A stretch of 61,031 nucleotides of DNA from Candidatus Hodarchaeota archaeon (GCA_016839815.1 JAEOTM010000099.1:1-61031), one strand, 5' to 3'. Shown: positions 17,549 to 32,556, counted from the stretch's first letter. The notes: a model not told the origin generated them from the sequence alone. Translations and numbers: made by a program.

Positions 17549-17923
17549 TGAGCATCGAAGCAACAGCCTGACTTCGGATTTCTTAGTAAATCTGAGGAAA
17601 TTCCAGCCATTCATTCGTACCGAACAGGGATTTACTTTTTAAAAGTGAAATCTCAGTCAATCGAGAGGTTGGGCTCTGTTACAGAAACGACACGCCCTTA
17701 TTCAAATGGCGAGGATAGAGTAAGGTCTGTGGCAACACGTGACCATTCAAGCTCTTGAGGACGAATAAGGAATCGGTGAGACGAACATCCTCGGTGAATG
17801 CAAGCAGAATATTTGATCTTTTACAAGATCTAGGAGAGTTGCGCTTAGGTTGATGTCAGGAACCTAAATCGGGTGACTTATTTAGGTGAACAGAAGCTGG
17901 ATTACTCATTGGAGCGATGCTCA
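17549..17923 (+). ncRNA. rnpB: RNase P RNA
   Basis: P1 TGAGCATCG/CGATGCTCA; CR-I GAGGAAATTCCAGC (17594) pairs with CR-V AACAGAAGCTGGATTA (17889) to form P4; ACAGAAAC and TGCAAG conserved segments. Confidence 0.92.
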
Positions 17924-22871: not shown

Positions 22872-24008
22872 CTAATTTTGTCGAGAAGAATACTCGCCAG
22901 GATTAATTCCAAAAGCTCTTAATAATTCAGCTGTTTTTCCAGATATTATTAAAGGAACTGTTCTTAAATCATTAATGGTCTGAGATCCAGTTAAGAAACA
23001 AGCAAGGCGGATTTGATAAGTAACTTCTTCTAAGAATTTGATTGATTTCTCAATTGAATTTTCTTGTATAGCAAACAGAAATGGAATAGCCATTCCTGCT
23101 GCATCAGCTCCAAGTGCTAGAAGTTTTGCAACCTCCAAACCATTTCTTACCCCGCCCGAACCTATTATATGTCCATTGAACTGTTCTTTCGCTAGGATGG
23201 TGCTTATGGCTGTAGGGAGGCCCCAATCCCAAAAAACTTCCCCAGTATTTTTATATTTTGGATCTTCTGCTCTAATAGATTCTACCCCAGCCCATGAAGT
23301 TCCTCCTGCACCTTGAATATCAATTCCTGTAAATCCTGCTTTTTTTATTCGCACAATATCAAACTTACTAAACCCTGATCCAACTTCTTTTGCTAAAATT
23401 GGAATTGATGATGCATTTATTAGCTTTGAAACCTTATCCATTAGATCTTGAAGATTAGTATCACCCTCAGGTTGAATAGATTCTTGCAATGGATTGAAAT
23501 GAAACGCGAGCGCATCTGCATCTATCATAGAAACAATATCTTTTAAATCAACAGCAGATAATCCTTCTACAATCTGTCCTGCACCAATATTCCCAATTTT
23601 AAGTGCAGTTGGGGCATTTCTTTTGACAATCTCAAATGATTCTCGTGCTTGAGTATCCTCTAGGGCAGCTCGTTGACTACCAACACCCATTCCTATTTGC
23701 GTTTTTTCTGCTACTTGAGATAAATAATCGTTAAGTTGCTGTGCAAACGCATGACCTCCCGTCATTCCTGAGATAACTAATGGAAACTGTAATTTTTTTC
23801 CGAAAAGTTCTATAGAAAGGTCAATATCTTCCATATTGAGATCTGTAGTCGCATGATGTACAAAAGATATATCTTCCAAACCAGTAGTGATATTACGACC
23901 TTGAACATCATGCTCAAGACAAATTTGTAGATGTGCAAGTTTACGTTCAGATGTAATGGTAGTTTCTTTTTTTCCATTGATTTCATGAGGAGTAATTTTC
24001 GATTCCAT
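22872..24008 (-). CDS. fni: Type 2 isopentenyl-diphosphate isomerase
   Basis: RKLAH, GMTGG, GVGSQR, NPLQESIQPEGD, KEVGSG, GAGGTSW. Confidence 0.96.
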   Translation of the reverse strand: MESKITPHEINGKKETTITSERKLAHLQICLEHDVQGRNITTGLEDISFVHHATTDLNMEDIDLSIELFGKKLQFPLVISGMTGGHAFAQQLNDYLSQVAEKTQIGMGVGSQRAALEDTQARESFEIVKRNAPTALKIGNIGAGQIVEGLSAVDLKDIVSMIDADALAFHFNPLQESIQPEGDTNLQDLMDKVSKLINASSIPILAKEVGSGFSKFDIVRIKKAGFTGIDIQGAGGTSWAGVESIRAEDPKYKNTGEVFWDWGLPTAISTILAKEQFNGHIIGSGGVRNGLEVAKLLALGADAAGMAIPFLFAIQENSIEKSIKFLEEVTYQIRLACFLTGSQTINDLRTVPLIISGKTAELLRAFGINPGEYSSRQN

Positions 24009-24050
24009 TCGAACTACACTTCTTAATTAATATCTTTAATTTTTATAGGC

Positions 24051-24644
24051 TTATTCTGATTCTAGGATGCTACTCCACCGTTTATATTTTTCATTGGGGA
24101 TATTGAAACAGTCTAGTACCTTACCTGAAATAAAATCGAATAAATCATTGATAGTTTTTGGTCGATGATAGAATCCAGGACTAAGAGGAAGTACTACTGC
24201 TCCGTAAATTGCGAGTTGATTTAAATTATGTAAACACGCAGGGCTTAAAGGAGTCTCCCGGATGCCAATAACTAATGGTTTTTTCATTTTCAACATGATA
24301 TCCGCTGCACGGGAGATTAAATTTCCTGTATTAGCCGTAGCAATATTACTAACCGTCTTAACAGTAGCTGGAATAACAACCATCCCATCAACGATAGTTG
24401 AACTACTGGAAATGGCTGCGTTCATGTCGTTTTCCTTATAGGTATAATCAGGTATCTTTTGAAATTCATCTAAAGAGCTAAGTGATTCTTTTTCGATCAC
24501 TTGCTTCGCCCACCTACTAATTATGACGTGAGTCTCAACATTGTGAGAGGATAGTGCTTTTACGACTTCAATGCCATAATCAATTCCAGAAGCACCTGTT
24601 AAAGCTACAATTATTTTGTTAGATTTCAAGAATCGTATCACCAA
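24051..24644 (-). CDS. ubiX: Flavin prenyltransferase UbiX
   Basis: TGASG, RAAD, RETPL, PGFYHRP. Confidence 0.93.
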   Translation of the reverse strand: MVIRFLKSNKIIVALTGASGIDYGIEVVKALSSHNVETHVIISRWAKQVIEKESLSSLDEFQKIPDYTYKENDMNAAISSSSTIVDGMVVIPATVKTVSNIATANTGNLISRAADIMLKMKKPLVIGIRETPLSPACLHNLNQLAIYGAVVLPLSPGFYHRPKTINDLFDFISGKVLDCFNIPNEKYKRWSSILESE

Positions 24645-24778
24645 TACAGAACGAATACCAGAAATTTTTATGTTTAATAAAATGCTACTACGGAAATAAC
24701 TTCATTATGAATAAATCATTTTTACAAAGACTGATTAATTAATCTTTGTTCTACATAATCTTCAAGGTATTGATGCTA

Positions 24779-25771
24779 ATGAAAGCAACTGCAATTGCAA
24801 ATTCTAATATTGCACTAGTAAAGTACTGGGGAAAAAGAAATTCTGATTTAATATTACCTTATAATTCGAGTATTTCAATGACCTTAGATTCTCTAAATAC
24901 AAAAACAACAGTTGAATTTAATAAAGAATTTTCAGATAATGAAGTGATTATTAATGGAAAGACAGTAGAAGGAGAAGAAAAGGCAAGGGTTGTCCATCAT
25001 CTTGATTTATTACAGGAATTCGTTACTGAAAAAGTATTTGCTAAGGTTAAGAGTGAAAGTAATTTTCCAAAAAAAGCGGGATTGGCCAGTTCGGCATCTG
25101 GTTTTGCAGCTCTAACATTAGCTGGAATTAAAGCTCTGGATCAAAATCTCACAACGAAAGAATTGAGTATTCTATCAAGAAGAGGAAGTGGTAGTGCCTC
25201 CAGAAGTGTACTAGGCGGATTTGTAGAGTGGAATAAGGGTTCACTACCAGATGGCTCAGATAGTCATGCAATTCAAATTGAGAAAGAAGATCATTGGCCA
25301 GAGCTCTCAATGATCGTAACCATTATATCGACAGAAGAGAAGAAGGTTTCTTCACGAGTAGGGATGAGTCAAACCGTAAAAACTTCTCCCTTTTATCCAG
25401 CCTGGCTAGATACAATAGAGTCTGATGTGGAAAAAATGAAAAAAGCTATATCGCAAAAGGATTTTGTTTTATTAGGTCAAATAGCGGAAAATAATGCTCT
25501 GAAAATGCATGCCACAATGCATACAACTGTTCCTCCTATTATTTATTGGGAATCTGGATCATTAACCATTATGAAAGAAGTAATAACACTCAGAGAAGAG
25601 GGGAAAGAGTGTTATTTTACCATGGATGCAGGCCCACAAGTTAAAATATTGTGTTTAGAAGATGATTTAGAAGTTATTAAATCACGAGTAAATAAATTAG
25701 ATGTGGTTCGAGATATCATGATTTGTCATCCAGGTAAGCAGACATCGTTAACAGATGACCATCTTTTCTGA
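24779..25771 (+). CDS. mvaD: Diphosphomevalonate decarboxylase
   Basis: NIALVKYWGK, AGLASSASG, RRGSGSASRS, FTMDAGP; adjacent to PMK. Confidence 0.92.
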   Translation: MKATAIANSNIALVKYWGKRNSDLILPYNSSISMTLDSLNTKTTVEFNKEFSDNEVIINGKTVEGEEKARVVHHLDLLQEFVTEKVFAKVKSESNFPKKAGLASSASGFAALTLAGIKALDQNLTTKELSILSRRGSGSASRSVLGGFVEWNKGSLPDGSDSHAIQIEKEDHWPELSMIVTIISTEEKKVSSRVGMSQTVKTSPFYPAWLDTIESDVEKMKKAISQKDFVLLGQIAENNALKMHATMHTTVPPIIYWESGSLTIMKEVITLREEGKECYFTMDAGPQVKILCLEDDLEVIKSRVNKLDVVRDIMICHPGKQTSLTDDHLF

Positions 25772-25777
25772 TTGTAT

Positions 25778-26908
25778 ATGGATAGTATAGATATGATTAC
25801 CGTTTCGGCACCTGGGAAATTGATGCTTTCAGGTGAATGGAGTATTCTAGAGAAAAATGTTCGATGTATAGTTCTTGCTGTTCAACAACGAGTGTACGCT
25901 ACGATTCAACCGAGAGAGAAGATGAGTGTTTATTTGAGAGATTTCGAATTGAAATCAGCATGTCATTATGCTGATGGAAATTTCTCATTCGATATCGAAG
26001 ATGAGAAGTTGATATTCTCAAAGTATGCTATTGAATCAGCATTGAGATATCTGAAATCTAGAAACATTCCTATCAAACCATTCCACTTAGAAACCTGGGG
26101 TGAGATCAGTAAAGTGGAAAATGTGGAAACGGGACAAGAGATGAAAGTAGGATTCGGAAGTAGTGCCGCAGCTGTTGTAGCTATTATTGGTGCAGTAATC
26201 CAATATCATACAAACTCTAGTTTTACACACCAGAAGAAAGAAGAGATTTTTAAATTAAGTATTATCTCACATTACCTCGGCCAAGGAAAACTTGGATCAG
26301 GGTTTGATGTTGCCGCGTCCACTTTTGGAGGAGCACTTATCTATAGAAAATTTGATCCTAAGTGGTTACAAGAGGAAATTACAACTGAAAATTTGGACAG
26401 ACTAGTTGATAAAGAGTGGCCCTTGTTACAATATATTCCAATTGAATTACCAGCTGATCTTGTCATGATGGTAGGCTTTACAGGAACGAGTGCCTCCACC
26501 AAGAAACTAGTACAGGAAATGAAGGTGTATAAACAGAAAGATCCCGATGGTTACTTTACTATAATTTCTAGAATTGCTGATGTTACTGAACAATTAATTA
26601 AAGCTATTAAATCCAAGAACCAAATATCGATACTTAAACTACTGGATCAAAATCGTATTTTGTTAGAAGAATTAAGTTTTGCTTGTTCTTGTCATTTAGA
26701 AATTGAAGCTCATCAAGTAATGAGTCACACGGCTTCAAAATATGGTGCCGTTGCAAAATTTTCTGGTGCGGGAGGAGGAGATTGTAGTGTTGGAGTTTGT
26801 TTCAATGACTCAGATGCAGCGATCATTGTCAAGGAATGGGTTCAGAATGGAATAATGCCAATTGATATCGAGTTTTCTAGGGAAGGAATTCGAATAGAAA
26901 AAGAGTAA
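25778..26908 (+). CDS. mvaK2: Phosphomevalonate kinase (GHMP; ERG8/MvaK2-type)
   Basis: SAPGKLMLSGEW, KVGFGSSAA, GSGFDVAAS, ASTKKLV, KFSGAGGGDC. Confidence 0.9.
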   Translation: MDSIDMITVSAPGKLMLSGEWSILEKNVRCIVLAVQQRVYATIQPREKMSVYLRDFELKSACHYADGNFSFDIEDEKLIFSKYAIESALRYLKSRNIPIKPFHLETWGEISKVENVETGQEMKVGFGSSAAAVVAIIGAVIQYHTNSSFTHQKKEEIFKLSIISHYLGQGKLGSGFDVAASTFGGALIYRKFDPKWLQEEITTENLDRLVDKEWPLLQYIPIELPADLVMMVGFTGTSASTKKLVQEMKVYKQKDPDGYFTIISRIADVTEQLIKAIKSKNQISILKLLDQNRILLEELSFACSCHLEIEAHQVMSHTASKYGAVAKFSGAGGGDCSVGVCFNDSDAAIIVKEWVQNGIMPIDIEFSREGIRIEKE

Positions 26909-26934
26909 AAAAAGGAAAGAAAGGAAGAGAGTCT

Positions 26935-27324
26935 CTAAACAATCTCTACGGTGCCATTTTCGCCATCAACTTCGATTTGCATACCAGATTCAATTTTAGT
27001 AACGTCAATCTGATCAACGCAAGGAAGTTCGCTTATAATAGTGCCAACTGCGACAATAGCTTCACAGTCATTAAGAACCAGTGCTTTTGGACCCTTACCA
27101 GTCATTGCCATCTGGTAGATAACGTAAGATCCAACAGTAGATCCTTTTCCTGAAGGAAAGACAAGAATCTTATCATTGATACTGACTCCTTCTAATTCAT
27201 GGCCCTTTTCAACGACAATTCCATTTTCTGGATCCACACCGCCATAAAATGAGATACTATCCGAAGTTACTAAAGCCTCACCTTTAGCTTTTCCTTTATA
27301 GATTTTTCGACCTGTTAATTTCAT
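26935..27324 (-). CDS. Phosphomevalonate dehydratase small subunit (AcnX swivel domain, DUF126)
   Basis: ISFYGGVDP, FPSGKGSTVGS. Confidence 0.9.
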   Translation of the reverse strand: MKLTGRKIYKGKAKGEALVTSDSISFYGGVDPENGIVVEKGHELEGVSINDKILVFPSGKGSTVGSYVIYQMAMTGKGPKALVLNDCEAIVAVGTIISELPCVDQIDVTKIESGMQIEVDGENGTVEIV

Positions 27325-28505
27325 TATGACAAAGCCTCCTCAAGACATTCATCCATTGACATTAATTTGACCGCAAATTTATTACGTCCAGACCCGTAAT
27401 AACACATCTTTGCAGAATCTGAAGCAAGACCATGGAAACGACCTTTGATAGGAGCTACAACACAGCAGGTATCTGCAGCGATCTTTGCACCAGAATCCTC
27501 AATCATTTTTGTAAAGCCCATTCGATCAGCAATCTGCTTGGTTGGTCGTGCAGTGGTAATCCATACTTCTTTTTTGGGATTAATTGATTTACCACTTAAT
27601 TTTTTGGCAATGTATTCTAATTCAGCTAAAGAAGCATGAGGACAGCCTAAACTGATGAAATCAATTTCAGTGTCATCATCTAAATCTCCCAAAGCCTTTT
27701 TCATATCATTTTCAGTAACGGTTTCGATCGTATCGGGAATTTGGTTCACTTTATTTGGAGTAATATCTTCCATATGAAAGAGTGCAACTCCGCCGTAAGT
27801 AGCGTATGATGCACAAAAGGATTTCAATTCTTCAACTGAAGCTTTGGGGATTCCAGTGATGTAGGTAATTTTTTTACCAAAACGATCTCCCAGTACTTTC
27901 CCTAACGCTCCAAATCGGAATGTCCCTTTAACTTCGCACTCAATATTTACAGTCAATTCGGGCTGTCGATTTTCTTCAAGATGAAATCCATATTCAGGAG
28001 TCTTCCCGACAAGTGCAGCGCTTAAAGCACTGGGACCACCTTCACGATTGGTCTTGGCCCCTAATACCGAGTTGGCATAGCAAACAGCCGAGCTCTCACT
28101 CCAAGCTATATGTTGACCATACGCAGGAAGGTTACCATAAAGATAAGGGGTACAAGAGCATGTAGTAATCACATCCAAGCGCTTAAATGCATCCACAACT
28201 CGAATCTGGTTTTCTGCAAACTCTTCACTAATAGCTAGCTTACGCCAATCAATTAAGTCCATTCCAGCAGGATTTAAGGTTGTCATAACTCTTACCTTAC
28301 CATCTACTGCCATTTCTTCCAGCCACGCTAGACCTGGTTCATTTAAATTTGCGTAGCTGACCCCAGCAATTTGTACGGATGTAACATCGATAAGTTTCTT
28401 CGCGCCATAAATCTCACCTAAAGTTATGAGAATCTCCATTGCTGTTTGCGCCGCTTTTCCATGTTTCCCTGCCACCATTTCCTGTTCTTCGGATGTCAAT
28501 TCCAT
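27324..28505 (-). CDS. Phosphomevalonate dehydratase large subunit (AcnX, DUF521)
   Basis: GVSY, TTLNP, CSCTPY, WSESSA, NSVLGAKTNRE, GCPH, DTCCVVAP, DSAK. Confidence 0.92.
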   Translation of the reverse strand: MELTSEEQEMVAGKHGKAAQTAMEILITLGEIYGAKKLIDVTSVQIAGVSYANLNEPGLAWLEEMAVDGKVRVMTTLNPAGMDLIDWRKLAISEEFAENQIRVVDAFKRLDVITTCSCTPYLYGNLPAYGQHIAWSESSAVCYANSVLGAKTNREGGPSALSAALVGKTPEYGFHLEENRQPELTVNIECEVKGTFRFGALGKVLGDRFGKKITYITGIPKASVEELKSFCASYATYGGVALFHMEDITPNKVNQIPDTIETVTENDMKKALGDLDDDTEIDFISLGCPHASLAELEYIAKKLSGKSINPKKEVWITTARPTKQIADRMGFTKMIEDSGAKIAADTCCVVAPIKGRFHGLASDSAKMCYYGSGRNKFAVKLMSMDECLEEALS

Positions 28506-28579
28506 AATTATCTCTCCATTATTACAACTCTTACTTACAAAAGATAACTCTAATGCTTGAAAGAAATTTCTTACTCGAT

Positions 28580-29473
28580 TTATTGTTCTTTTATTTCTGA
28601 ATTGGAATGAGTATTTATATATTCGAGATATCTTTGGAGTGTATTCTGAGTAAATTCTGTCCGTGTTATTGCCTCAAAATCTATAAGGGTAAACCTCTTT
28701 TTGACTTCATCTCTTGAGATTGGATTAAGTTTCTGGAAATCGTTTATTTTTTCTGTTACTATTGATATTAGAGAGTTTTTGAATTTCTCTGGATCTTTGA
28801 GGTACTCTTTTCTTGACTCATTAAAATTGTTCTTCTCTACATACTCATTTCTGACTATTGCCCATATTTCCCCAAAACGAGATAGTCCCTCAGTACTTAA
28901 ATCAGGTATTTCAAAGTTTATTATCCCGTCCGCTTTGTGTTTTTGCAAAAGAAGAGAAATTTTTCTTTGATTTTCCCCTATAGGTGGAAATTTATTTAGA
29001 TCTGAAGCTAAAAAAACGGTTGCTGAAAATGGAAGAAAAGGATCAGCTCTATCGTGGTTAGTTTTAAAAATTTCTGAAATGACTCCTTCAACAGAAGAAA
29101 CAATATCATTGCTTACTACTTTAATGAATAAAAGCTCTGTCGATCCTGAAGTTGTATTATAACCTGAAACAACATCGGGAATGCTTGCAGCTGTATAAGA
29201 CTTACCATACGTATCTACCACTCTACTAGACTTCATTGATTGAGAGATAAGATATTTTTGATCTTTCTTTGGATATTTGGTTAAATCTAATGGAAGTTGT
29301 ACTTGATTCATGATATTATTGTTTTTGCGAAATTCAGATGAAAGAAATAAACCTGCACAAAAGGAATTGACTGGCCCGTCCCCTTCTTCTTTAAGGAGTT
29401 TGACTATACTTCCTGGTGGTACATGGTACTTACATCCAGATACCGAGGAAAATCTATGGGTGTATATTAGCAA
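28580..29473 (-). CDS. Hypothetical protein
   Basis: ~297-aa ORF with no recognised motif; start uncertain. Confidence 0.6.
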   Translation of the reverse strand: MLIYTHRFSSVSGCKYHVPPGSIVKLLKEEGDGPVNSFCAGLFLSSEFRKNNNIMNQVQLPLDLTKYPKKDQKYLISQSMKSSRVVDTYGKSYTAASIPDVVSGYNTTSGSTELLFIKVVSNDIVSSVEGVISEIFKTNHDRADPFLPFSATVFLASDLNKFPPIGENQRKISLLLQKHKADGIINFEIPDLSTEGLSRFGEIWAIVRNEYVEKNNFNESRKEYLKDPEKFKNSLISIVTEKINDFQKLNPISRDEVKKRFTLIDFEAITRTEFTQNTLQRYLEYINTHSNSEIKEQ

Positions 29474-29519
29474 ATACGATGGGTTTGATTAATAAACCCC
29501 CAAATCACTTCTTTTTATA

Positions 29520-30167
29520 TTGAGGTGGAAAATAATGAGGAATTTTCAAAAACTGTTAATAGTTAGTGTATTACTTAGTTCTTTGGGATTCTTAAATCAT
29601 GATTTTCTTCATCGAAATCCATTAGTAACTGTCTCTACGAGTATGATTTATAAAGAAGGAAATCTAAGTCTTAGTAACACTAGTGAAATTGCTACTATTA
29701 TGGACTATGGTGTTGAGGAGGGCAACATTGGCACCACATATAATTTTACGATACAGTTAGATGCTAGTTCTACTTCAGGTATTAATCTAACATTGATAAA
29801 AATGCATGATTGGCGTGGTAGCCCACATATTTTTCCTGTTGTCCCAGGTGAAACAAGGACAGTTATGTACGTACAGCACAGCACTGCAGATGAAAGAGGG
29901 ATGCTGAATCTCGAATATCACTTGTTGAATACTTCTGGTACTGTTACAGGGACCTATCAGGTTAGATTAGTCTTTGGGGGTTATCCTGTCGATATCGGAA
30001 CTGGAGGTCTTTATGTTGAGGATATCACAGCTTGGCTTCGTACTCGTTCACAGACTAAACCCAGTACCATTACTTTCTCTTTTTCTCCGCTCATGTTGCT
30101 GCTTCTCGTCTACGTGTATATCTATTGTAGAAAGAAGAAAAATAGACCTTCTAAAAGCCTTGGTTAA
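29520..30167 (+). CDS. Hypothetical cell-surface protein (signal peptide, beta-rich domain, C-terminal TM plus basic tail)
   Basis: N-terminal hydrophobic stretch, several NxS/T sequons, LMLLLLVYVYIYCRKKK. Confidence 0.65.
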   Translation: MRWKIMRNFQKLLIVSVLLSSLGFLNHDFLHRNPLVTVSTSMIYKEGNLSLSNTSEIATIMDYGVEEGNIGTTYNFTIQLDASSTSGINLTLIKMHDWRGSPHIFPVVPGETRTVMYVQHSTADERGMLNLEYHLLNTSGTVTGTYQVRLVFGGYPVDIGTGGLYVEDITAWLRTRSQTKPSTITFSFSPLMLLLLVYVYIYCRKKKNRPSKSLG

Positions 30168-30272
30168 CGCATCCTGATACGGAAGTACGAGTTACGAATT
30201 ATTTTGATTAATTTGACAATCGGTCTTCTAATTTATGTAAAGACTGAGGGAAACAGATCCTTCTTCTTTTGC

Positions 30273-31583
30273 TTAATCCTCAAAATAATCTTTTAGATCA
30301 ACTGCAGGAAATTTTGCTCGGCCGAAACTTTTTCCGGCAGTTTTAAGCGGTGCAGTTAGGTCAAAACCAACTTTGTTGGTCATTTTTGTCCCAGGTTCGG
30401 CACTAGGATCTAAACTTGATCCTGGTTCTTTTCCAATATCAACTAAATCGCGTTCAGCTTGGAATCGTGTTGCCATTGACCATTCGACCTCGAGAGGATC
30501 ATAAATATTGATATCCTTATCTACGACAAACACATGTTTACAACTTCGATGTCCTTGGAATGCGGCATGGATAGCTTTCTTACCATCATCCTCTTCCTTT
30601 TTATCAATCTTTACAATGGCATGTAACCAAGAAGAACCACCAGGATTAACGTTGACATCGATACAGGTAACCCCAGCCTCATTTACTGTCTTAAAGATTG
30701 TGGGTTCTCTGGGCATTCCCATCAAAACTTTGTGTTCTAACGCTCCAGGTATTAATGCTTGCCAAATGGGATCCTTTCGGTGTGTAATTCTTCTAACTTC
30801 AAAAACTGGTTCTTCTCGAACTACATCGTAGGTCTCGGTTAGATCTATAAACGGACCTTCATCTGATCGATCCTGCATAAATACGCGTCCTTCTAGTACA
30901 ACCTCGCATCCTGCGGGAATTAATACATCAATAGACTTCGCTTTCACTATTTGGGTTGGTGCGAGTGCATTCGCAATTTCTAGCTCATTTATTCCCGTTT
31001 TAACTGAAGTTGCTGCAGCTACTAATACATTGGGGGTATTTCCAACGCAATATACTGCATCCACTTCCCCTGTTCTCTCTAAGAATTTGTAAAAATCTCT
31101 TCCTTTGATGATCCGTGTACTCATACGGTCACTGGAAAACTGCATTGCACGATGAAAGTCTAAATTCTGTCCATATTCAGGATCTTTTGTTACCACAACT
31201 GCTGATGAAATATAGCGTCCACCATCGCGTTCATTATGTTTTAAGATAGGTAATTTATCTAAATTCACACTTTCCATGACCACTTCTTGGCATGGTGCAC
31301 TGGTTACCTCTTCAGGTAGACTCCTATTATCAATTGCAGAGGTTAATTTGGGAATAAGCTCTGCGGTCGAAATTCCAAAATAGTCAGCTATACTGATCTT
31401 TGTACTGAAAATATTTCCTGCAACTCGGAAATCTGAATAACCTTTGACATTTTCAAATAAAATTGGGGTTGGTTCCGCTGTTTTCAATACAGCAGCAGCT
31501 TCAATATCTATATCAACAGCTTTTTTGATTTTTGTAATTCCATTTTTATTTTCTAATTGAGTAATATACTCTCGAAAATCCAT
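30273..31583 (-). CDS. ubiD: UbiD-family decarboxylase, probable anhydromevalonate-phosphate decarboxylase
   Basis: DGGRYI, EGPFIDLTETYD, GGSSWLHA, VVDKDINI, GSSLDPSA; clustered with mvk, acnX and ubiX. Confidence 0.9.
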   Translation of the reverse strand: MDFREYITQLENKNGITKIKKAVDIDIEAAAVLKTAEPTPILFENVKGYSDFRVAGNIFSTKISIADYFGISTAELIPKLTSAIDNRSLPEEVTSAPCQEVVMESVNLDKLPILKHNERDGGRYISSAVVVTKDPEYGQNLDFHRAMQFSSDRMSTRIIKGRDFYKFLERTGEVDAVYCVGNTPNVLVAAATSVKTGINELEIANALAPTQIVKAKSIDVLIPAGCEVVLEGRVFMQDRSDEGPFIDLTETYDVVREEPVFEVRRITHRKDPIWQALIPGALEHKVLMGMPREPTIFKTVNEAGVTCIDVNVNPGGSSWLHAIVKIDKKEEDDGKKAIHAAFQGHRSCKHVFVVDKDINIYDPLEVEWSMATRFQAERDLVDIGKEPGSSLDPSAEPGTKMTNKVGFDLTAPLKTAGKSFGRAKFPAVDLKDYFED

Positions 31584-31617
31584 ATCAATCTACACCTGCA
31601 TTTTATTATACTTTAAT

Positions 31618-32556
31618 TTAAACTCCGATTTTTGTTTTCCAGACAGCAAACCCTGCATCCTTTAATGCGTTGTAAACTTTATCCTGAAGATCTACTCCTG
31701 GTGTTAATACATTAATATTGCCTCCCCGTCCTGTGCCTGTAACTTTTGCCCCCAAGGCACCTGCTTCTCTTGCGATAGATACCATTTTATCTAGAATATC
31801 ATTAGAAACAGTTATTTCCTGTAAAAGTTCATGATTTTTATTCATGAGTCTTCCTACTTGTTTTAAATTCATTAATTCCAAAGCATGACGGCCTTCTTTT
31901 ACTACTGATTTATATTCTTTTACTATTCTATCAAACCACTTGGGATTCTCTTCTTTCTTTTCACGTACATCTGCTACAACTACACTCGTATTAGCAGTCA
32001 TTCCTGAACTAGCTATGACGAGATCGACGGGTTCAGAGAGTTTTATGGTCTCCATTGTATTTGGCCCTCCGTGAAGGTTTTTTACAAAATAAACCAACCC
32101 TCCAAACGTTGATGCGGTATTGTCAATACCACTTGGAGTTCCGTGATATCCTTTTTCCCCTTCATATGCGGCCTCGTTGATTTTTGTATCATCCCACCCT
32201 AGTTGAAATTCATCATTAATTGCGCGTGCTAAGGCAACGCAACTTGCTGCAGAGGCTCCTACACCACTAGCACAGGTTAAATTTCCCCCTAATGTAATTT
32301 TCATCTTCTTTTCATCAAGGTTTACACCCATAAAGTCAAGAACGTTTTTGATCGAGACCTTTTGTTCATCAAATTTCTTTTTTTTGTATCCAGGTACCTC
32401 AGGTCGATTATCAAATAGCTCGTATCCCTGTCCCTCTTCAATTTCCACAATTGCTTCTGTAAAATCGCCAATTGCGGAAGCCATGGCTGGTAAACCATAA
32501 ACTACAAAATGCTCGCCGAATAGTATTGTTTTTCCAAAACCAGAACCCGTTCCCAT
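31618..32556 (-). CDS. mvk: Mevalonate kinase
   Basis: GKTILFGEHFVVYG, GVGASAA, HGTPSGID, GAKVTGTGRGG. Confidence 0.93.
   Translation of the reverse strand: MGTGSGFGKTILFGEHFVVYGLPAMASAIGDFTEAIVEIEEGQGYELFDNRPEVPGYKKKKFDEQKVSIKNVLDFMGVNLDEKKMKITLGGNLTCASGVGASAASCVALARAINDEFQLGWDDTKINEAAYEGEKGYHGTPSGIDNTASTFGGLVYFVKNLHGGPNTMETIKLSEPVDLVIASSGMTANTSVVVADVREKKEENPKWFDRIVKEYKSVVKEGRHALELMNLKQVGRLMNKNHELLQEITVSNDILDKMVSIAREAGALGAKVTGTGRGGNINVLTPGVDLQDKVYNALKDAGFAVWKTKIGV

Follow-up and report, generated by a model that had tools for sequence, protein, structure and literature searches.

Genes for both lower mevalonate pathways, the archaeal and the classical, occupy one locus in the genome of a Candidatus Hodarchaeota archaeon, positions 22872-32556 of contig JAEOTM010000099.1 (assembly GCA_016839815.1), whose full 61,031 nucleotides are referred to here as the window. 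The genes of the archaeal route, for mevalonate kinase (MVK), a UbiD-family decarboxylase, the large and small subunits of AcnX (acnX1 and acnX2), UbiX and the isomerase IDI2, lie on the minus strand, and between acnX2 and ubiX stands a plus-strand cassette of two genes of the classical route, for diphosphomevalonate decarboxylase (DMD) and phosphomevalonate kinase (PMK). The explanation of the whole that we consider probable is a conserved archaeal operon joined by a single, laterally acquired classical cassette, with both branches intact. All ten open reading frames (ORFs) of the cluster are present and uninterrupted on the strands and at the coordinates listed in Table 1. An earlier note on this DNA had claimed this gene set and its arrangement, the intactness of all ORFs, a KYWGK-type decarboxylase and a branching of the two routes at mevalonate 5-phosphate; the ORFs, the family scores, the sequence motifs and the purifying selection described below agree with it on each of these.

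The genome is that of a Hodarchaeum (order Hodarchaeales, Asgard archaea). The nearest relatives of its DMD and PMK are labelled Candidatus Hodarchaeales, Heimdallarchaeota B3_Heim and Candidatus Hodarchaeum mangrovi, and one related genome (G001) has a DMD identical to the protein of the last of these. In what follows the genome under study is designated G000 and its relatives G001 onwards, with G002 being B3_Heim.

Enzymes of the two routes

Genes were named by comparing Pfam and NCBIfam profile scores with the curated cut-offs. DMD scores 335 bits against the equivalog model TIGR01240 (cut-off 171), and stays far below the cut-offs of the sister models for phosphomevalonate decarboxylase (PMD; NF040704, 186 versus 475) and MBD (NF040847, 70 versus 560). 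Its best solved relative is the Enterococcus faecalis MDD (PDB 6e2s/5v2l), aligned over the full length with 277 bits. In an alignment with homologues from Firmicutes, DPANN, the Candidate Phyla Radiation (CPR), Chloroflexi and other Asgard archaea, the protein bears YWGK, EEKKVSSRVGM and FTMDAGPQ, and thus has the Lys of YWGK, the Ser-Arg of SSRxGM, the loop Lys and the catalytic Asp of MDAGP without the His of the PMD type. Loki-type Asgard and Chloroflexi homologues show YWG[H/N/V] and SSxxGH at the same positions. The roles of these residues other than the loop Lys reportedly come from work on S. epidermidis. The role of the loop Lys is taken from PMC9254496, and a PMD-like pattern with His present and no Lys has been described by Zhu et al. 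2024 (Microorganisms 12:707, PMC11052028). By these signatures the decarboxylase is of the true DMD type and not a PMD. We found no second DMD homologue elsewhere in the genome, and an exact look-up of DMD in public contigs gave zero matches.

PMK passes the cut-off of the Gram-positive-type model TIGR01220 (220 bits versus 166) and falls under that of the eukaryotic ERG8 model TIGR01219 (120 bits versus 377). Its best PDB match, with 162 bits, is 3k17, deposited as the Listeria ‘Lin0012 protein’; aligned with this structure, the GHMP motifs PGKL, GFGSSAA and GAGGGD are intact. The starts given for DMD and PMK in Table 1, which are likely the true ones, match the gene calls of the protein collection and leave the start of PMK 21 bp downstream of DMD.

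On the archaeal side, the profile scores identify a two-subunit AcnX of the phosphomevalonate-dehydratase type. The large subunit keeps three aligned conserved Cys residues and matches PDB 7cnr (‘DUF521 domain-containing protein’) best among solved structures, with 332 bits compared with 205 for hydroxyproline dehydratases; we take 7cnr to be the Thermococcus type IIb AcnX, also of the phosphomevalonate-dehydratase type. The best PDB match of the UbiD protein is 6h6v, which is deposited under a generic UbiD-family name rather than one specific to anhydromevalonate phosphate decarboxylase (AMPD), and which is presumably HmfF. Across the order, the ubiD gene always lies between the genes for MVK and AcnX1. 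UbiX makes the prenylated flavin mononucleotide (prFMN) needed by UbiD-family decarboxylases. Isopentenyl phosphate kinase (IPK) is encoded on another contig (G000:C206:59704-60516; NF040647, 161 bits versus 120), and both routes are therefore complete on paper.

Distribution and ancestry of the cassette

We compared 24 genomes of the order and a wider set of 400 Asgard genomes. Within the order, AcnX1 is found in 22 of the 24 genomes and DMD in seven, with a PMK fragment in G006 bringing the cassette carriers to about eight; no genome of the order has the cassette but lacks AcnX. The genes for MVK, UbiD, AcnX1, AcnX2, UbiX and IDI2 are contiguous on a single strand in 10 related species, where the gap between acnX2 and ubiX is ~100 bp, and IDI2 is the last gene of the operon in all relatives. 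It is always in the acnX2/ubiX gap that carriers have the cassette, inverted relative to the operon in G000, G005, G007, G002 and G017 and colinear with it in G001. What is left in G003 is a relic of ~60 codons from the C-terminal end of PMK, containing a stop codon. The archaeal operon is thus core in the order, and the DMD-PMK pair accessory and often lost. Among the 400 Asgard genomes, AcnX is present in 330 and DMD scores above its cut-off in 43.

In a proxy for the species tree, built from ten flanking proteins, G000, G005, G007, G002, G001 and G003 form one clade (support 98), and G017 is sister to six cassette-free species. Read with the single clade of Hodarchaeales DMDs described below, this tree fits a single gain of the cassette, one or more inversions and two or more losses. 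The two-gene classical cassette would thus have been inserted between acnX2 and ubiX of the conserved Hodarchaeum operon; the genus would have gained it a single time, out of a pool of genes common to DPANN and CPR and related to Firmicutes enzymes, and the inversions and losses would have followed.

The DMD tree was rooted on PMD-like Asgard homologues and the PMK tree on MVK; neither holds eukaryotic sequences, the comparison with eukaryotes being made through PDB bit scores and Zhu et al. The Hodarchaeales DMDs form a single clade (90 in the Shimodaira–Hasegawa-like approximate likelihood ratio test, SH-aLRT) within Diapherotrites, Aenigmatarchaeota and CPR (support 98 and 97). Firmicutes and the Asgard family f15 come next, and the DMDs of f5, f6 and f7, three families of Heimdallarchaeia, fall in other parts of the tree. 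The PMK tree repeats this pattern. The closest DMDs from outside the Hodarchaeales, 56-59% identical, belong to a Promethearchaeota-labelled metagenome-assembled genome (MAG), Diapherotrites, Aenigmatarchaeota and CPR; the same list, partly with the same contigs, holds for PMK, which has ~49% identity to DPANN and CPR. Forcing the DMDs of Heimdallarchaeia into a single clade, a group that is a prior taxon although it was chosen for testing after the tree was seen, costs 126 log-likelihood units and is rejected by the approximately unbiased (AU) test (p=3.9e-9). In bit scores against solved structures, the window DMD is nearest to Firmicutes (250-277), followed by Saccharolobus (192) and by human, yeast and plant (168-181), and the DMD of f7 gives the same ranking. 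PMK likewise matches Firmicutes enzymes with higher scores than those of eukaryotes. Judged from these trees and scores, the lateral history of DMD and PMK appears clear, with no sign of a special eukaryotic affinity; proteins closer to eukaryotes and vertically inherited within Heimdallarchaeia are not what we found.

Selection and base composition place the cassette on a par with its neighbours. In comparisons with the three closest species, DMD has a dN/dS of 0.07-0.10, PMK of 0.04-0.07 and all the neighbours of 0.02-0.10, values that are rough at saturated dS yet all far below 1, and purifying selection is strong on all genes of the cluster. DMD identity across the deep splits of the genus is 65-80%. 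The base composition of the cassette matches that of its flanks and is not anomalous, and the acquisition is therefore old. The insertion and the same neighbours are also found in the independent assemblies G005, G007 and G002, which excludes misassembly.

Possible role of the cassette and competing explanations

The DMD-PMK pair is divergently oriented from ubiX. About 110 bp of the 128-bp spacer between ubiX and DMD are near-identical in G000, G005, G007 and G002, although synonymous change in the flanking genes has reached saturation, and this conservation suggests a cassette with its own regulation. The spacer also contains TTTAATAAAATGCTACTACGGAAATAAC and the palindrome TTGATTAATTAATCTTTG, a candidate site for a regulator. 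A scan for sigma-70 promoters and intrinsic terminators, which does not model archaeal promoters, gave counts no higher than the shuffled expectation.

From the gene content, MVK would make mevalonate 5-phosphate as the shared first step of both routes. On the archaeal branch, AcnX with its iron-sulfur cluster would carry out the dehydration, UbiD with prFMN from UbiX the decarboxylation and IPK the phosphorylation, at 2 ATP per isopentenyl diphosphate (IPP). On the classical branch, PMK and DMD would lead to IPP at 3 ATP with neither an iron-sulfur nor a prFMN cofactor, and IDI2 would serve both routes. Two functional routes are likely, and both may carry flux. The cassette, expressed from its own divergent promoter region, would then be a cofactor-independent bypass for times when AcnX or UbiD is limiting, as under oxygen, oxidative stress or iron shortage, and such a backup role for oxygen or iron-sulfur limitation is plausible. 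A heme-copper or cytochrome bd oxidase occurs in 8/8 cassette carriers and in 10/16 non-carriers (naive Fisher p ~0.06), and G003, with its relic, and G010 have neither an intact cassette nor any terminal oxidase; this co-occurrence is a weak, non-significant trend, to be taken as a lead and not as evidence. It is also the only observation made here that bears on the oxygen- or energy-dependent switch which the earlier note had inferred. Taken jointly, a bypass that maintains isoprenoid lipid synthesis under oxygen or iron shortage, is controlled by the ubiX/DMD region, came from DPANN archaea sharing a habitat with facultatively aerobic Hodarchaeum and was dropped together with oxygen respiration seems unlikely to hold in every part.

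Several points weigh against parts of the account given here. The oxidase contrast comes down to just two phylogenetically independent contrasts, with which significance is unattainable. Aeropyrum pernix, an aerobe, reportedly uses the AcnX route, which weakens the argument from oxygen. Naming the UbiD-family protein as a putative AMPD rests on its family and on the conserved operon context. Whether the transfer went from DPANN into Hodarchaeum or the other way hinges on the rooting and on a sampling biased towards best hits. Finally, the DMD tree disagrees slightly with the proxy species tree over the position of G017, and transfer within the genus is therefore possible.

It is possible, though doubtful, that the cassette is plainly redundant. 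It would then be a second route of lateral origin, either adding to the flux or near-neutral, which drift keeps in some species and drops in others with no conditional role. In favour of this are the patchy distribution, with two or more losses and one relic, and the oxidase association, which is non-significant once relatedness is considered. However, carriers keep the cassette under strong purifying selection (dN/dS 0.04-0.10 at saturated dS) and have retained it across the deep splits of the genus, and it has a conserved putative promoter region of its own.

The earlier note had also suggested that the locus might capture one pathway in the course of being replaced by the other, on the line leading to eukaryotes. 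According to this explanation, the classical route arose in or was inherited by Heimdallarchaeia, and Hodarchaeales keep the dual intermediate that the archaeal ancestor of eukaryotes had. Hodarchaeales are reported to be closest to eukaryotes, and Zhu et al. (PMC11052028) read the co-located genes in this way. The Heimdallarchaeia family f7 has DMD in 9/12 genomes and AcnX in 1/12, and pathway replacement has therefore happened elsewhere in the class; beside the f7 DMD there is only a sub-threshold GHMP kinase, and we do not claim a complete classical route for f7. Within the Hodarchaeales, however, it is the classical pair that is dispensable, present in about 8/24 genomes and a relic in G003, and losses never fall on the archaeal operon. 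DMD and PMK of the order nest with DPANN and CPR and are not sister to those of other Heimdallarchaeia, as the AU test showed, DMD scores higher with E. faecalis than with human, yeast or plant (as does that of f7), and PMK fits the Gram-positive model and not ERG8. We therefore regard a transitional state in Hodarchaeum as quite improbable, and neither the replacement nor its direction toward eukaryotes is borne out.

That the decarboxylase acts on mevalonate 5-phosphate as a PMD in a haloarchaeal-type route, or that AcnX and UbiD act on unrelated substrates, is very unlikely. Annotations of GHMP decarboxylases are frequently wrong (Zhu et al., PMC11052028), and Loki-type Asgard clusters do pair AcnX and UbiD with a PMD-like decarboxylase and have no PMK. 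Yet the window enzyme keeps both the YWGK Lys and the SSR Arg, lacks the PMD His and remains well under the PMD cut-off; a PMK gene follows it closely, and AcnX and UbiD are found between MVK and UbiX-IDI2 in every relative. Lastly, the chance of an assembly or binning artefact joining bacterial or DPANN DNA to an Asgard contig is negligible despite the 7.8% estimated contamination of this MAG, since the same junctions occur in at least four independent assemblies with cassette proteins 77-84% identical, the cassette resembles its flanks in base composition and the flanks carry an archaeal RNase P RNA and housekeeping genes.

Cluster features, variants in relatives and known systems

The features of the cluster are collected in Table 1. 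Its flanks hold the housekeeping genes for ABCE1, Tsr3, FKBP, L7Ae, PGK and topoisomerase, and upstream of the cluster, between protein genes, lies an archaeal RNase P RNA gene (17556-17916; Rfam RF00373, 127 bits).

Table 1. Features of the dual mevalonate locus in the window, with the family scores (bits versus cut-off) that support each name
Feature	Position	Strand	Evidence
IDI2/fni, type 2 isopentenyl-diphosphate isomerase	22872-24008	-	TIGR02151 equivalog, 378 bits, cut-off 281
UbiX flavin prenyltransferase	24051-24644	-	NF004685, 197 bits vs 188; PF02441
ubiX/DMD divergent intergenic region	24645-24772		AT-rich, TATA-like boxes, TTGATTAATTAATC palindrome
DMD, diphosphomevalonate decarboxylase	24773-25771 (ORF open from 24746)	+	TIGR01240
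PMK, GHMP-type phosphomevalonate kinase	25793-26908 (ORF open from 25772)	+	TIGR01220
AcnX small subunit (phosphomevalonate dehydratase, swivel domain)	26935-27324	-	PF01989; NF003046, 180 bits vs 163
AcnX large subunit (phosphomevalonate dehydratase)	27324-28505	-	PF04412, 485 bits
Family-less ORF, 297 aa from TTG start	28580-29473	-	No Pfam/NCBIfam match
Family-less ORF, 215 aa	29520-30167	+	No Pfam/NCBIfam match
UbiD-family decarboxylase	30273-31583	-	TIGR00148, 351 bits vs 245; three UbiD Pfam domains
MVK, mevalonate kinase	31618-32556	-	TIGR00549, 228 bits vs 163

A 1.77-kb insert (28506-30272), which this genome alone has, separates acnX1 from ubiD in the operon and holds the two family-less ORFs, neither of them mentioned in the earlier note. 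The longer ORF is missing at that place in G005 and G007, and G018 has a copy of it, 56% identical, next to acnX1; an Atlas search with it gave no convincing neighbour (best 0.87). The shorter one, found in this genome only among the relatives examined, has a signal-peptide-like N-terminus and a C-terminal hydrophobic anchor, and looks like a small anchored surface protein. A mobile element was considered as the source of the insert and dropped, since the insert lacks terminal repeats and occurs only once in the genome.

Inserts of another kind are found in acnX1 of some relatives. In G007 (L072:9489-10703), G002/B3_Heim (L073:8911-10125) and G006 (L083:697-1911), a 36-nt in-frame insert with a stop codon follows codon 81, and at the same site G006:C158 (L066:1227-2433) and G020:C145 (L061:1501-2626) have a 34-nt insert that breaks the frame. 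Exact removal of the insert restores the protein sequence across the junction (...NPAG-MDLE...) in every case on the five contigs. The inserts fold into a helix, a 3-nt bulge, a hairpin and another 3-nt bulge, with the bulges on opposite strands as in a bulge-helix-bulge, and the inner stem differs in sequence among species with its pairing kept by compensatory changes. The insert is probably a tRNA-type mini-intron in mRNA, judging by its fold; alternatively, it may mark a gene fission with a restart at Met82. The acnX1 genes of the window and of G005 have no insert, the equivalent site in the window being after codon 81, near 28260.

Two relatives have rearranged operons. On G006:C7 (L083:1-2300), the 3' end of PMK comes first, next an acnX2 fragment of 31 codons on the opposite strand, and after it complete acnX1-acnX2 oriented the other way. 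Either a local inversion with a duplicated fragment left behind or an assembly chimera accounts for this arrangement. The operon of G018 (L079, G018:C46:41000-60999) is broken up, with ~7.6 kb between ubiD and acnX1 and ~4 kb between acnX2 and ubiX, the latter including a truncated second acnX1 copy of 112 codons with one TAG. The junctions of this operon seem prone to insertions.

Each known system that resembles this locus also differs from it. The Aeropyrum-type mevalonate pathway reportedly consists of PMDh (AcnX type IIb), AMPD (UbiD family), UbiX and IPK. These components are present here (AMPD by context) and form a conserved core operon, which in the window is interrupted by the DMD-PMK cassette and the two family-less ORFs. 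Firmicutes mvaD and mvaK2 provide the best solved-structure matches and have the same catalytic motifs and adjacent genes; however, identity to them is just ~45-48% for DMD and ~30% for PMK, DPANN and CPR proteins are closer, and no dedicated mvaK1 stands beside the cassette. Sulfolobales are likewise archaea with PMK and DMD, but the Sulfolobus control genome matches DMD and not AcnX, and so has one route only; the window DMD also scores lower with Saccharolobus than with E. faecalis (192 versus 277 bits). Loki-type clusters of family f20 have a GHMP decarboxylase directly after acnX2 and, like the locus here, would run two routes from mevalonate 5-phosphate. In contrast to the window, their decarboxylases carry YWG[H/N] and SDxGH (PMD-like), lack a PMK partner and would yield isopentenyl phosphate, not IPP. 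In one such cluster (L124:4370-9406, G216:C43), of a type common in genera g53-g55, the order is UbiD-AcnX1-AcnX2-decarboxylase-MVK, and with a PMD-like decarboxylase and no PMK it would therefore have two routes to isopentenyl phosphate.

The clusters most like this one have already been reported. Zhu et al. 2024 (Fig. S5) showed PMK and DMD with AMPD and AcnX on one contig in the order Hodarchaeales and, from a data set that includes Hodarchaeum MAGs, proposed that the eukaryote-type route had its cradle and its donor in these Asgard archaea, so that both the co-location and its eukaryote-ward reading are in print. In contrast to that reading, the cassette is accessory here, occurs in two orientations and as one relic, and groups with DPANN and CPR. 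What our analysis adds is the history of gain, inversion and loss within the genus and the DPANN/CPR affinity of the cassette.

Archaeal membranes are built from isoprenoids, and the origin of the eukaryotic mevalonate route is part of the ‘lipid divide’ question. A close relative of eukaryotes with two routes has been read as a transitional form, and the comparison argues against this for Hodarchaeum, in which the classical pair is a mobile, dispensable add-on common to DPANN and CPR, while the archaeal route is constant.

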